Source: an uncultured Chloroflexia bacterium (GTDB taxonomy: Bacteria; Chloroflexota; Limnocylindria; Limnocylindrales; CSP1-4). From it: DNA of 64,000 bases. Under the pieces are notes generated by a model. It saw only the letters and a list, made by a program, of their open reading frames with translations, was not told the DNA's origin and ran no database searches. Below are positions 20,632 through 53,860 of the stretch, in pieces; the stretch's first letter is position 1, and each line of letters starts with the position of its first letter. The position numbers were made by a program, and so were the translations under genes. The stretch covers positions 1,984,001-2,048,000 of the forward strand of contig OY970218.1 of assembly GCA_963713975.1 (NCBI GenBank). The letters are read 5' to 3'.

Positions 20632-21945
20632 TCAGGCGTTCGCGACCTCGTCCCGGAATGCACGAACGTCCTCGAGGCGACGGCGGAGCGCGTTGAGGAA
20701 CCGGGCGCCCATCTCTCCATCGACGATGCGGTGGTCGGCCGACAGGGTCAGCTTCATGACCTGCCGGATTCCGATGCCGCCATCGACGGCGACCGGGGTC
20801 GCCACGGCCGACGAGACCGCGAGGATCGCGGCCTCACCGGGATTGATGATCGCGCTGAACTCATCGACGCCGAACATGCCCAGGTTGCTCACCGTGAAGG
20901 TGGAACCGACGAGGTCGTCCACCGCGACGGTGCCCTCGCGGGCAGCGGCGGCCAGCGCCCCGACGCGGTCGTGCAGCTCGACGATCGTCATCCGATCGGC
21001 GTCGCGGACGACCGGCACGACGAGGCCAGCGGGAACGGAGACCGCGACGCCCAGGTGGACGCGGCGTCGGGGGAAGACCTGCTCGCCATCGGTCCGGGAG
21101 TTGACGTCCGGGAACTCCGCGAGGGTCTGGGCGGTGGCGGCGAGCACGAAGTCCGTGACGGTGAGGGCGTGACCCTCCGCCTTGAGCTCCGCGCGCAGGG
21201 CCATCACCCTGGTGACGTCCACGGCGACGGTCACCGTGAAATGGGGGGTCGTCTGCCAGCTGTTGGTCAGCCGCGCAGCGATGGTGCGGCGCATGCGGCT
21301 CAGCGGCCTGGGTTCCTCCTCGCCCTCGGCGGGGGGCACGGCGATCGGGGCGACGGGCGCCGCGACCGATCCGGCCGAAGGGGATGCCGTCGGCGCCGGG
21401 GCAGGTGCCGTGGCGGCGGCGTCCACCGCCGCCTGCACATCCCGCTCCACGATCCGACCGCCGGGACCGGTCCCGGTCAGGGTTCGGGGATCGAGTCCGG
21501 CCGTGGCCGCGAGCCGGCTGGCCCTGGGGCTGATCCTGAGCTTCTGGCCGTCCGCGACGGGAGCAGCCGGGGTGGACGATGCCGCCGCCGCAGGCGCTGC
21601 GGCGGTCGGCGTGGCGCCTGCGGCCACCGGAGTCGGCCGGGCCGCTGCAGCCTCGGCCGCCGGGACGAGCGCTGGCGCCGGTTCTGGCGCCTCGGGGACG
21701 GCCTCGCCGGCCTCGCCGATCCAGCCGCACACGGCGTTCACGGGTGCCGTCTCGCCGTCGGCAACGAGCTTGGCGAGGAGGACGCCCTCTTCGAAGGTCT
21801 CGACCTCCATCGCGCTCTTGTCGGTCTCGATCTCGAACAGGACGTCGCCGCGGTGGACCGGGTCGCCCACCTCAATGCGCCAGAGGGTGAGGACGCACTC
21901 CTCGGTCATCTGGCCGGGTTTCGGCATCAGGATCGGATGGGCCAT
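20632..21945 (-). CDS. Dihydrolipoamide acyltransferase (E2)
   Basis: Lipoyl motif ETDKSA, E3-binding ISPRASRLA...GTGPGGRI, catalytic DHRIVDG. Confidence 0.95.
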   Translation of the reverse strand: MAHPILMPKPGQMTEECVLTLWRIEVGDPVHRGDVLFEIETDKSAMEVETFEEGVLLAKLVADGETAPVNAVCGWIGEAGEAVPEAPEPAPALVPAAEAAAARPTPVAAGATPTAAAPAAAASSTPAAPVADGQKLRISPRASRLAATAGLDPRTLTGTGPGGRIVERDVQAAVDAAATAPAPAPTASPSAGSVAAPVAPIAVPPAEGEEEPRPLSRMRRTIAARLTNSWQTTPHFTVTVAVDVTRVMALRAELKAEGHALTVTDFVLAATAQTLAEFPDVNSRTDGEQVFPRRRVHLGVAVSVPAGLVVPVVRDADRMTIVELHDRVGALAAAAREGTVAVDDLVGSTFTVSNLGMFGVDEFSAIINPGEAAILAVSSAVATPVAVDGGIGIRQVMKLTLSADHRIVDGEMGARFLNALRRRLEDVRAFRDEVANA

Positions 21946-21988
21946 CGGTCTTGTTCCTCGGCGCTCGATGCTGCTTGACGGAGTCGGA

Positions 21989-51986: not shown

Positions 51987-52054
51987 GGCGGCCACAGGAA
52001 GCAATCGAACCCGTCAAAGCATCGACTGGCGTCCCAGGAATCGAGGCAACCGAC

Positions 52055-53860
52055 ATGACCACCGTCAATACCACCGGACGTTTCGTGGGCGACTGGCCGC
52101 GGATCGGCATCCGTCCCGCCGTGGACGGCCGGATGCACGGCGTGCGCGAGTCGCTCGAGGAGCAGACACGGGCGATGGCCCTCCGGACCGCGGACCTGCT
52201 CCGGGCAAGCCTGCGGTACCCGGATGGGACGCCCGTGGAGGTCGTCGTCCCGGACCACAACATCGGTGGCGTGTACGAGGCGGCCAAGGTCGCCGAGCTG
52301 TTCCGCAAGGAGGGCGTGGGCGTCTCGATCACCATCACGCCCTGCTGGTGCTACGGCTCCGAGACGATGGACATGGACCCCCTGACGCCCAAGGCGGTCT
52401 GGGGCTTCAACGGCACCGAGCGCCCGGGCGCCGTGTACCTCGCCGCGGTGCTCGCCGCACACACCCAGAAGGGCCTCCCCGCGTTCGGGATCTACGGGCG
52501 CGACGTCCAGGACGCCAGCGATGGCACGATCCCGGACGACGTCGCGGTCAAGCTCCTGCGGTTCGCGAAGGCGGGGATGGCCGCCGCGATCCTGCGCGGC
52601 AAGTCGTACCTGTCCCTGGGCGGCGTGTCGATGGGCATCGCCGGGTCGATCGTGGACCAGCCGTTCTTCGAGAAGTACCTCGGCATGCGTGTCGAAGCCG
52701 TCGACATGTCCGAGATCTACCGCCGGCTCGAGGAGGAGATCTACGACCCGGTCGAGTTCGAGAAGGGCCTTGCCTGGGCCAAGACGAACTGCACCGAGGG
52801 TCGGGACATCAATGTCCCCGCGAAGCAGAAGACCCGCGAGGGGCTCGACGCCGACTGGGCCACGGTCGTCAAGATGTTCCTCATCGCGCGCGACCTGCTG
52901 GTGGGCAATCCGAGGCTTGCCGAGCTCGGGTTCCCCGAGGAGGCCCTGGGTCGCAACGCCATCCTGGGTGGCTTCCAGGGCCAGCGTCACTGGACCGACC
53001 ACAGCCCCAACGGCGACTTCATGGAGGCCATCCTCAACTCGTCGTTCGACTGGAACGGCATCCGGGCGCCGCACATGTTCGCCACCGAGAACGACTCGCT
53101 CAACGGCACGACGATGCTGCTGATGTACCTGCTGACCAATCGGGCCCAGATCTTCGCGGACGTCCGGACGTTCTGGAGCGCGGACGCGGTGGAGCGGGTC
53201 ACGGGCTACAAGCCCGACGGCCTGGCCTCCGACGGCTTCATCCACCTGATCAACTCCGGCGCGGCCACCCTCGATGCCACGGGCGCGATGACCGACGCGG
53301 ACGGCAAGCCTGCGATGAAGCCGTTCTGGGAGATCACCGAGGGCGATGTCGGGGCCGCGCTCGCGGCGACGACCTGGTACCCGGCGGACCGGGGCTACTT
53401 CCGGGGTGGCGGGTACTCCAGCCAGTTTGTGTCCAAGGGCGGTATGCCCGTGACCATGGCTCGCGTGAACCTCGTCAGCGGCGTTGGCCCCGTCCTCCAG
53501 ATCGCCGAGGGCTGGACCGTGGAGCTCCCCACAGAGGTCCACGACATCCTCGACCAGCGGACCAACCCCACCTGGCCGACCCACTGGTTCGTGCCGCGGA
53601 CCACGGGCATGGGCCCCTTCCGCGACGTCTACACCGTGATGGCCAACTGGGCCGCCAACCACGGCGCCATCAGCTACGGCCACATCGGTGCGGACCTGAT
53701 CAGCCTCGCCTCGGTCCTGCGGATCCCGGTCCACATGCACAACGTGCCGGAGGAGGACGTCTTCCGACCGTCCGCGTGGGCGAACCTGGGCACCGCCGAT
53801 CCCGAGGGCGCGGACTTCCGCGCCTGTGCCAACTTCGGTCCGCTGTACGGCCGCAAGTAG
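52055..53860 (+). CDS. fucI: L-fucose isomerase
   Basis: [63 protein letters not shown]. Confidence 0.97.

Follow-up and report, generated by a model that had tools for sequence, protein, structure and literature searches.

The window, as we call the whole 64,000-nucleotide stretch of DNA analysed here (C1:1984001-2048000, about 71% G+C), belongs to the single-contig, 3.62-Mb genome of an uncultured Chloroflexia bacterium, placed in the Limnocylindria (Chloroflexota), and contains genes for the use of L-rhamnose and L-fucose. Both are major sugars of plant, algal and microbial cell walls, and to our knowledge all described bacterial phosphorylative routes for them end in an aldolase and lactaldehyde. 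Judged from its sequence, the region appears to be a non-canonical phosphorylative L-rhamnose/L-fucose catabolic supercluster in which a lipoate-dependent E1/E2 complex may cleave a methyl acyloin, a tentative reading that we put only just below an even chance. In this region the usual RhaEW enzyme is replaced by a four-gene module, which encodes a PHP-fold protein, a fusion of a class II aldolase and a short-chain dehydrogenase/reductase (SDR), an unusually long medium-chain dehydrogenase/reductase (MDR) and a zinc-dependent alcohol dehydrogenase (Zn-ADH) that is an MDR of the sorbitol-dehydrogenase type. The module and the complex, made up of a fused E1 alpha-beta chain (E1ab), E2 and in some loci E3, are kept together as a conserved unit in the genomes of two lineages. 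Conserved neighbourhoods, the SrlD-type SDR and, in some loci, a mannitol-1-phosphate-5-dehydrogenase-like gene in the position of the Zn-ADH together point to a consistent link of the deoxyhexose cluster with redox enzymes of the polyol-phosphate type and with a dedicated lipoate complex.

A scan with the fused E1 yielded 80 related loci, mostly from Limnocylindria/Limnocylindrales, with orthologues 75-90% identical to the window's; all were oriented and taken with flanks of up to 10 kb. Genes in them were counted by tblastn of the window proteins, and a recount kept only matches with 45% identity or more that covered 35% or more of the query. E2 follows E1ab in 75 of the 80 loci. A SorC-family regulator is present in 26, and elsewhere a DeoR-like regulator takes its place. 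The module genes were found in similar numbers of loci (PHP protein 23, long MDR 22, aldolase-SDR 21, Zn-ADH 20), and so, less often, were the deoxyhexose genes (RhaB 15, RhaI 9, FucI 8). At least one module, rha or fuc gene accompanies E1ab in 37 of the 80 loci, and in 29 of the 53 that have full flanks; on these neighbourhood counts the clustering exceeds chance. Two contigs of metagenome-assembled genomes (L025, L042), whose module genes lie in several in-frame pieces, likely through indel errors or as pseudogenes, were left out of the counts based on single tblastn segments and included in the recount of summed coverage.

Four arrangements of these genes occur. In the first, the module is divergent from SorC-E1ab-E2 (L020, L093 and others). 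In the second, rhaM-B-I-SorC-E1ab-E2 are co-directional (L022-L024, L028, L031). The third is a ten-gene co-directional string, rhaM-rhaB-rhaI-RhaD-like-PHP-aldolase/SDR-long MDR-Zn-ADH-E1ab-E2 (L037). In the fourth (L033, L036, L043), the order is rhaB'-PHP-SDR alone-long MDR-Zn-ADH-E1ab-E2, there is no aldolase, and FucI and FucU follow downstream. The genomes of L033 and L036 have the aldolase half as a gene of its own, placed after rhaI in another rha operon (L112, L113). The first-pass annotation of this DNA had named gene-neighbourhood co-occurrence as a check on its proposal, and E1ab/E2 does occur together with the PHP protein, aldolase-SDR, long MDR and rhaB, rhaI or fucI across changes of gene order, in Limnocylindria as well as in the second lineage described below.

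The phyletic pattern was drawn from 121 evenly sampled class genomes, including the unpublished G110, G095, G100, G071, G116 and G091, which were used in tallies only. An E1ab orthologue (at least 76% identical) is present in 15 of them. The PHP protein is present in seven, and a full-length aldolase-SDR (split in G006) in the same seven. All seven carry E1ab, six of them within 12 kb of the module and the seventh on different contigs. RhaI was found in 10 genomes and FucI in 11; in G054 an aldolase-only gene adjoins FucI.

A more distant lineage repeats the linkage. Metagenome contigs were scanned with aligned sequences of distantly related PHP proteins, P0244 at their head; one member of the P0244 cluster is named Acidimicrobiales. 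This gave 80 loci whose PHP proteins are 43-53% identical to that of the window, and genes were counted in the 46 loci of at least 8 kb. The aldolase-SDR was found in 31 of these, the long MDR in 30, a fused E1 or E2 in 25, E3 in 10, RhaB or RhaI in 12 and a mannitol-dehydrogenase-family gene in 7; 21 have neither E1 nor E2, and some stand in other contexts. Two forms, checked with Pfam, recur. In one, ABC-rhaM-rhaI-rhaB-PHP-aldolase/SDR-long MDR-E2-E3-fused E1 (819 aa) run in one direction beside a LacI gene (L145, L176, L188, L200, L211). In the other, HAD-fused E1-DeoR is divergent from E2-E3-PHP-aldolase/SDR-long MDR-mannitol_dh-like (L147, L155, L162, L187, L192, L198, L202, L217). Thus E3, the dihydrolipoamide dehydrogenase, lies inside the cluster here, unlike in the window's genome. 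These strings contain rhaI and no fucI. Their SDR half is also SrlD-type (243 bits on the sorbitol-6-phosphate dehydrogenase model NF009050 vs 152 on the RhaW model). The extra dehydrogenase that follows the long MDR in 7 of the 46 loci, the position held by the Zn-ADH in the window, matches only mannitol-1-phosphate 5-dehydrogenase models, with 104 bits against a cut-off of 356.

How far does the aldolase-SDR fusion depart from RhaEW? The latter, a rhamnulose-1-phosphate aldolase fused to a lactaldehyde dehydrogenase, has been validated in Chloroflexus aurantiacus and Bacillus subtilis (Rodionova et al. 2013, PMC3870299). The SDR that had been placed at 32629 is an SDR and carries both strings of the sorbitol-6-phosphate-dehydrogenase signature attributed to it (INSKSG and KFGGIGLTQS); it is the C-terminal half of the aldolase gene, not a separate gene. 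The Pfam layout, with Aldolase_II at residues 19-209 and adh_short at 411-599, is the architecture of RhaEW. On TIGR02632, the model for the bifunctional rhamnulose-1-phosphate aldolase/SDR, the fusion scores 328.3 bits, below the equivalog cut-off of 567.75. It is the weakest full-length match among 151 sampled Chloroflexota genomes, of which 46, the unpublished G159 among them, exceed that cut-off. Aligned with seven canonical or second-tier RhaEW sequences of the same phylum, it is 26-33% identical.

The two halves were also scored alone. The best match of the SDR half is sorbitol-6-phosphate dehydrogenase NF009050, with 228.8 bits, below the cut-off of 307, as against 155.6 bits on the RhaW part of TIGR02632. 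For comparison, the SDR of a canonical RhaEW (L133) scores 385 bits on TIGR02632 and 188 on NF009050, and its SDR motifs differ from those of the window. The aldolase half matches only the aldolase halves of bifunctional families (165-166 bits). Its phosphate, Glu and His motifs (GGGN, PSVE, HTH, NHG) align with those of canonical RhaEW, the last three having been listed as kept from the outset, and it looks catalytically intact. By these scores and alignments, the fusion is a RhaE-type aldolase joined to an SrlD-type SDR, a half unlike RhaW.

An ordinary RhaEW orthologue was considered for the aldolase-SDR and is ruled out by the TIGR02632 score, the 26-33% identity, the SrlD-type SDR half and the different locus content. 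In two canonical RhaEW loci (e.g., L133, LacI-ABC-RhaI-RhaEW-RhaB), RhaI is 51-53%, RhaB 44-50% and RhaEW 27-31% identical to the window's protein, and these loci hold no PHP, long MDR, Zn-ADH or E1 genes. Across 10 canonical or second-tier RhaEW loci, no PHP protein, long MDR or E1-E2 was found. Separately, a divergent RhaD-like class II aldolase gene (an open frame of about 360 codons; NF002963 138 bits vs a cut-off of 170) follows rhaI in some relatives. It was seen in 8 of the 80 loci (L024, L028, L031, L035, L037, L056, L065, L088) and also in L112 and L113. Loci with this gene thus hold two aldolase-type genes; the window's genome is without it.

The E1ab and E2 proteins have the full domain sets of a 2-oxoacid/acetoin dehydrogenase complex. 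They are the third E1/E2 set of the genome, and one of the other two adjoins the E3 gene at C1:2628494 (TIGR01350 500.6 vs 408.8), which lies outside the window and is available to the complex. With two further sets present, the possibility that E1ab-E2 is the genome's only pyruvate dehydrogenase (PDH) was discarded. The window's E1 falls below PDH equivalog cut-offs (NF008854 363.5 vs 454; TIGR03182 263 vs 394), as it does on the alpha models. The E1 of the second lineage fails even the PDH beta subfamily model NF006667 (231.5 vs 321 bits). A maximum-likelihood tree of 35 E1 beta halves, selected from 31 chosen loci and the window's genome, contains a split with support of 100/99. One side unites 13 rows from Limnocylindria, 13 from the second lineage and a fused E1 encoded on a plasmid of Rhizobium CIAT894. 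The two further E1 beta genes of the window's genome fall on the other, together with a paralogue from L032 and five homologues from plasmids.

The closest relatives of E1ab on plasmids share 39-45% identity with it, have fused or split alpha and beta genes, and in several cases lie in sugar clusters with SorC-type regulators. An Arthrobacter plasmid (L115) carries class II fructose-bisphosphate aldolase (FBA)-fused E1-lipoyl protein-FGGY kinase-SorC-ABC-FGGY kinase. In Rhizobium CIAT894 (L117), a sugar-phosphate isomerase, ABC genes and RbsD/FucU are divergent from fused E1-lipoyl protein-alpha/beta hydrolase-carbohydrate kinase-SorC. Rhizobium N324 (L141) has SorC-oxidoreductase-E1 alpha-E1 beta-E2-E3-class II FBA and a Clostridioides difficile record (L140) has SorC-E1 alpha-E1 beta-E2-E3, both with no sugar kinase. 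Elsewhere, a Streptomyces plasmid copy stands in a non-sugar context and a Fuscovulum copy follows a LysR regulator. SorC and E1/E2 units recur in sugar-utilisation clusters of Actinomycetota, Alphaproteobacteria and Bacillota, in records that name them generically.

The first protein of the module, 409 residues long, has no match in Pfam (including PF02811) or NCBIfam and no meaningful sequence match in the PDB. An AlphaFold2 model computed with 58 family members has a mean pLDDT of 95.1, and its best Foldseek matches in the PDB are PHP phosphoesterases (RNase AM 9etk, Cv1693 2yb1, BAD_1165 3e0f; E 4e-10 to 5e-9, target TM-score 0.67-0.75). The predicted fold thus places the protein in the PHP phosphoesterase superfamily. 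Residues H23, H25, E81, H183, E326, H327 and H363 are nearly invariant across the family, and the near-invariant His, Glu and Asp columns are probably metal ligands. The family comprises 438 clusters at 50% identity, matched at E <= 0.001, and its named members come from metagenome-assembled genomes of Limnocylindrales, Acidimicrobiales and Chitinispirillaceae; taxon leads in the ESM Atlas are Planctomycetota and Actinomycetota. It also occurs naturally fused with a class II aldolase (P0288) and with Mannitol_dh, a protein of the mannitol-dehydrogenase family (P0243). A tblastn search of 72,556 plasmid records with this protein gave no match.

The 574-residue long MDR is the enzyme that had been described as sorbose-1-phosphate-reductase-like. 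That label agrees with the automatic JGI names of its orthologues (e.g., L-sorbose 1-phosphate reductase) and lacks the backing of a curated model: Pfam finds ADH_N alone, the best NCBIfam scores are about 42 bits on unrelated MDR models, and matches to MDR structures in the PDB are weak. It apparently has two Rossmann-like alpha/beta domains, with a GxxGxxG string (GAAGPMG) in the second only, and none of 41 orthologues varies in the Cys and His-Glu columns of the catalytic domain. Its only plasmid match, in an SDR-MDR-FGGY kinase-GntR operon of Deinococcus, was rejected as an instance of the same module, the SDR there being 27% and the kinase 24% identical. The neighbouring Zn-ADH belongs, by sequence similarity, to the sorbitol-dehydrogenase/ketose-reductase group, with PDB matches to 1e3j at 1e-49 and to sorbitol dehydrogenases at 5e-49.

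What chemistry might such a set of enzymes perform? Uptake, the mutarotases RhaM and FucU, the isomerases RhaI and FucI and one FGGY kinase are well supported as a predicted route to a 6-deoxy-L-ketohexose-1-phosphate. RhaI and FucI both score above their NCBIfam equivalog cut-offs and RhaB below its own; a census of FGGY genes in the genome found RhaB to be the sole such kinase within the window, as had been noted for the rhamnose and fucose genes. The polyol-phosphate-type dehydrogenases would then shift the carbonyl to C5, beside the methyl group, probably after reduction of C2. In a hexitol phosphate, the carbon that SrlD (sorbitol-6-phosphate 2-dehydrogenase) and MtlD (mannitol-1-phosphate 5-dehydrogenase) oxidise is the one adjoining the end without phosphate; because the penultimate carbon of a 6-deoxyhexitol-1-phosphate is C5, the same regiochemistry would give a methyl acyloin. 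E1/E2 could split this acyloin as acetoin dehydrogenase splits acetoin, C5-C6 departing as acetyl-CoA and a C4 phosphate remaining, with E3 supplied to the window's complex from elsewhere in the genome. Rhamnose and fucose would converge on one product, because C4, the carbon that distinguishes them, becomes the aldehyde carbon.

We favour an acyloin over pyruvate as the substrate because two unrelated families with C5-type regiochemistry occur in the module and because a whole accessory set, E1-E2(-E3), is embedded in a sugar operon. The resulting end of 6-deoxyhexose catabolism, with a methyl ketone at C5, a cut of the C4-C5 bond by E1/E2/E3, acetyl-CoA and a C4 phosphate as products, no free lactaldehyde and no loss of CO2, would be new, and we regard it as possible, if somewhat doubtful. 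The exact scheme of the first-pass annotation, in which C2 is reduced first and the product is a tetrose-4-phosphate, is about half as probable as the general acyloin reading. A further variant, pure conjecture by analogy, would assign the fusion a function: it would oxidise C5 without reducing C2, cut C4-C5 and oxidise the C4 aldehyde, after which the aldolase-like half would decarboxylate 3-oxo-tetronate-4-phosphate to dihydroxyacetone phosphate (DHAP). OtnC, a class II aldolase-family enzyme, is a precedent for aldolase-like decarboxylation.

A number of points weigh against cleavage of an acyloin. The scheme gives no role to the conserved aldolase half, and none to the PHP protein. By Fischer-projection reasoning, the predicted tetrose-4-phosphate would be D-threose-4-phosphate or L-erythrose-4-phosphate, not D-erythrose-4-phosphate, and the pathway would require additional steps. 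The aldolase half is RhaE-type with intact motifs, is conserved in the module and exists as a stand-alone copy after rhaI (L112, L113), and ordinary cleavage to DHAP and lactaldehyde is possible and simpler. That route would be feasible without extra genes, because two LldD-type genes elsewhere in the genome could oxidise lactate to pyruvate. Pyruvate as the substrate of the complex would also be compatible with the score of the window's E1 beta half, which passes the PDH E1 beta subfamily model NF006667 (373.8 vs 321). The E1 beta tree has just 35 rows, long branches (second-lineage stem 1.32), a midpoint root and rows without characterised reference sequences. The AlphaFold2 model of the long MDR is poor (mean pLDDT 65), confident only at about 190-470, where it shows two alpha/beta domains. 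The 80 loci are kin and not independent samples. Against a role confined to deoxyhexoses, PHP protein and aldolase-SDR are absent from 8 of the 15 class genomes with E1ab, 7 of which have neither RhaI nor FucI; in such genomes E1ab-E2 adjoins an operon of transaldolase, cupin and split transketolase genes. Finally, one or more genes of this kind neighbour E1ab in 47 of the 80 loci (transketolase halves 26 each, cupin 22, transaldolases 21 and 14).

A more conventional alternative is one that we consider unlikely and yet take seriously. In it, the aldolase half would yield DHAP and L-lactaldehyde and the SDR would oxidise lactaldehyde (or C5 would be oxidised first, giving methylglyoxal). The C3 unit would go to pyruvate, E1ab-E2-E3 would be a PDH induced by rhamnose or fucose, and one MDR would be a lactate or 2-oxoaldehyde dehydrogenase. 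The validated RhaEW of C. aurantiacus and B. subtilis is a precedent, as are the lactate dehydrogenase genes that belong to some RhaR regulons (PMC3870299). Besides the RhaE-type aldolase motifs and the E1 beta score, aldolase-only genes inside rha operons speak for it, and the presence of E1ab in genomes without rha or fuc genes is compatible with a pyruvate enzyme. The SDR half, however, is SrlD-type and not RhaW-type, and the fusion has diverged from the RhaEW of the phylum far more than RhaI and RhaB have from their counterparts. A canonical RhaEW exceeds the cut-off in nearly a third of the sampled phylum genomes. Lactaldehyde chemistry would also leave the co-inherited PHP protein, long MDR and polyol-type dehydrogenase without a natural role. 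An extra E1-E2(-E3) set in a sugar operon would be unusual for so central a metabolite in a genome that already has two others, and where the RhaD-like aldolase is present it would make the RhaE half redundant.

The presence of one kinase and one aldolase fusion beside two isomerases allows another explanation, namely that the dehydrogenases interconvert L-fuculose-1-phosphate and L-rhamnulose-1-phosphate by way of a keto intermediate, letting a single kinase and a single aldolase serve both sugars, and that E1-E2 acts on pyruvate or another downstream product. The module does occur with FucI only (G024), RhaI only (G036) or both. Against interconversion, the module is kept where a single isomerase was found, as in G036, which is 95% complete and has RhaI and no FucI, and in the second-lineage strings with rhaI and without fucI. 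Moreover, the SrlD and MtlD families act at the penultimate carbon and not at C4, and the coupling to E1-E2-E3 would go unexplained. We regard interconversion as improbable.

The mixed neighbourhoods of E1ab raise the question of whether the complex is simply an unrelated neighbour, acetoin-type or sugar-linked and belonging with the transaldolase/transketolase operon, brought close by the general clustering of catabolic genes. The E1ab genomes without the module, the transaldolase, split transketolase or cupin genes beside E1ab and the complex's own regulator could all be read in this way. Against this, the genes have stayed adjacent through four or more rearrangements, in some cases as co-directional strings whose gaps do not exceed about 120 bp; every one of the seven module genomes has E1ab; and the linkage recurs in a distant lineage, there with E3 in the string as well. 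We consider mere adjacency very improbable, and retain acyloin cleavage as the preferred reading.

The full gene inventory is given in Table 1. The gene series was chosen by codon-position G+C (GC3) and names were taken from Pfam and NCBIfam. By these means every gene of the first-pass list was recovered where it had been placed, including the fused E1 and E2 headed by a sugar-binding regulator, here a SorC-type protein (24295-20632).

Table 1. Genes of the deoxyhexose region, with position in the window, strand and basis of assignment.
Feature	Position	Strand	Basis
E2 dihydrolipoamide acyltransferase	20632-21945	-	Pfam: lipoyl, E3-binding and catalytic domains; NCBIfam scores all under cut-offs
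Fused E1 alpha-beta (E1ab), thiamine diphosphate (TPP)-dependent, 768 aa	21989-24295	-	Pfam E1_dh, Transket_pyr, Transketolase_C
SorC-family sugar-binding regulator, head of E1ab-E2 operon	24317-25276	-	Pfam Sugar-bind, 181 bits
Isocitrate lyase (ICL), long form, 774 aa	25662-27986	-	TIGR01346, 415 bits vs cut-off 276
Divergent malate-synthase-family gene (MS), 669 aa	28003-30012	-	Pfam MS_TIM-barrel, 160 bits; TIGR01344, 231 vs 594.5
LysR regulator, divergent from MS-ICL	30222-31136	+	Pfam
PHP-fold metal-dependent phosphoesterase-like protein, 409 aa, first module gene	31400-32629	+	Predicted fold
RhaE-type class II aldolase (aa 1-400) + SrlD-type SDR (aa 405-679) fusion	32629-34668	+	Pfam, NCBIfam
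Atypical MDR dehydrogenase, 574 aa (long MDR, "ADHlong")	34692-36416	+	Pfam ADH_N only
Zn-ADH, sorbitol-dehydrogenase/ketose-reductase subfamily	36413-37423	+	Pfam; PDB matches
DeoR-family regulator of rha genes	37524-38435	+	Pfam, NCBIfam
Rhamnose-type ABC transporter: ATPase, two permeases, binding protein	38255-43218	+	Pfam; first and last gene starts uncertain
L-rhamnose mutarotase RhaM	43285-43599	+	Pfam rhaM, 95.6 bits
Rhamnulokinase-like FGGY kinase RhaB	43592-45082	+	TIGR02627, 448 bits vs cut-off 528
L-rhamnose isomerase RhaI	45100-46317	+	TIGR02635, 543.3 bits vs 531.35
Second sugar ABC transporter (ATPase, permease, binding protein) beside fuc genes	46598-50389	+	Pfam
LacI-family regulator	50498-51556	+	Pfam
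FucU/RbsD mutarotase	51567-51986	+	Pfam RbsD_FucU, 111 bits
L-fucose isomerase FucI	52055-53860	+	NF008220, 1031 bits vs 775

Orthologues of the rhamnose-type ABC transporter adjoin rhaM-B-I in relatives. The absences reported for the window also held. There is no stand-alone rhaD or fucA, the other two class II aldolases of the genome lying outside at C1:729528 and C1:2077224; no fucO, all Fe-ADH hits being elsewhere in the genome; and no E3, whose gene is the distant one given above. An Rfam scan of positions 18000-56000 matched no RNA family.

A built-in glyoxylate shunt had also been proposed, and this part of the proposal fails. ICL, MS and the LysR regulator are each found in none of the 80 related loci, which places them outside the conserved system. 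Searches of four close relatives' genomes found an ICL orthologue in one, 2.2 Mb from that genome's E1ab, and no match at E 1e-50 in the three others, which have rha or module genes. We accordingly rejected the shunt as part of the pathway. The PHP and SorC genes of the closest relatives are immediate neighbours in divergent orientation, whereas in the window MS-ICL and LysR sit between them. ICL and MS are single-copy in the genome and form, with the divergent LysR gene, a self-contained block (25662-31136), a lineage-specific insert that is incidental to the system.

Other neighbours were noted. A PucR-type regulator and a diacylglycerol-kinase-like gene (19007-20530, 18031-19518) come after E2, likewise in the closest relatives L020, L021 and L093, and may share its transcription neighbourhood. 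Upstream of the island, at 14882-17563, lies an 893-residue dihydropyrimidine-dehydrogenase-like fusion with Fer4_20, Pyr_redox_2, DHO_dh and 4Fe-4S dicluster domains. In many relatives (L097, L052, L085, L092) an operon about 0-9 kb upstream of regulator-E1ab-E2 contains a transaldolase-family gene, a cupin, split transketolase N and C halves and sometimes an aldehyde dehydrogenase; a phosphoenolpyruvate-utiliser-domain gene and a GntR regulator flank it, the GntR gene lying between it and the E1ab unit. In the window's genome this operon is far from E1ab, at C1:184947-197268. A second transaldolase often follows E2 in relatives (21 of the 80 loci), and its orthologue here adjoins one of the stand-alone class II aldolase genes, at C1:728326-730049.

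A 2-oxoacid-dehydrogenase-type complex and hexitol-phosphate-type dehydrogenases thus lie inside rhamnose operons in two uncultured lineages, on hundreds of metagenomic contigs. In titles and the beginnings of abstracts of a limited literature collection, we found no paper in which acetoin dehydrogenase or E1/E2 is connected to rhamnulose or fuculose, in which E1/E2 genes belong to rhamnose or fucose clusters, or in which a rhamnitol(-phosphate) or 1-deoxy-fructose route is described; nor did we find in that collection a paper combining Limnocylindria and rhamnose. If acyloin cleavage is correct, it would add a new C-C bond chemistry to sugar catabolism, a carbon-conserving C6 to C2 + C4 conversion useful to metabolic engineering, and the SorC-led E1/E2 units of other phyla could be members of a broader, so far unrecognised class of dehydrogenase complexes that cleave sugar phosphates. 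Should pyruvate be the only substrate, the cluster would still define four uncharacterised deoxyhexose-linked enzyme families (the PHP-fold protein, the 574-residue MDR, the RhaE/SrlD fusion and the fused E1), all mislabelled or blank in automatic annotation.

Of the known systems, the RhaEW pathway (PMC3870299) shares with the window RhaM, a Gram-positive-type RhaI, RhaB, an ABC transporter and a DeoR regulator, as well as a two-domain protein of class II aldolase and SDR within the rha locus, with a RhaE-type aldolase half. It differs in that the window-type fusion always travels with the PHP protein and long MDR, often with E1-E2, and has an SrlD-type SDR half (328 vs 568 bits on TIGR02632). 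The SorC-led plasmid E1/E2 units resemble the window in their regulator-E1-E2 order, ABC transporters and class II aldolases, in the sugar kinases of two of the four records, and in the Rhizobium CIAT894 fused E1 on the module-linked side of the 100/99 split. They are set apart by their 39-45% identity and other accessory genes, and none has a PHP protein.

The SorE/SorD, SrlD and MtlD enzymes provide a second parallel. Here too a producer of a ketose-1-phosphate is followed by an MDR, named sorbose-1-phosphate reductase by JGI, and an SrlD-like SDR, and some second-lineage loci add a distant MtlD-like enzyme. The long MDR, however, at 574 residues with an extra alpha/beta domain, matches no curated SorE model (the library was not checked for one), and the SDR (229 vs 307) and the MtlD-like enzyme (104 vs 356) are both below equivalog cut-offs. 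A 6-deoxy substrate would moreover give a methyl ketone here, not fructose-6-phosphate.

The remaining comparison is with acetoin dehydrogenase (AcoA/AcoB/AcoC/AcoL), which converts CH3-CO-CHOH-R to acetyl-CoA and R-CHO. The sole Aco model matched was the AcoC-type E2 model NF011457, below its cut-off, in a library not checked for AcoA or AcoB models. The likeness lies in a TPP-dependent E1 alpha-beta and a lipoyl E2 that form an accessory, third complex, paired here with an MDR of the butanediol/sorbitol dehydrogenase group much as the acetoin system is with butanediol dehydrogenase. In contrast to that system, E1 alpha and beta are fused, the regulator is of the SorC or DeoR family, the genes lie inside sugar operons, and the proposed substrate would be a phosphorylated deoxy-sugar derivative.

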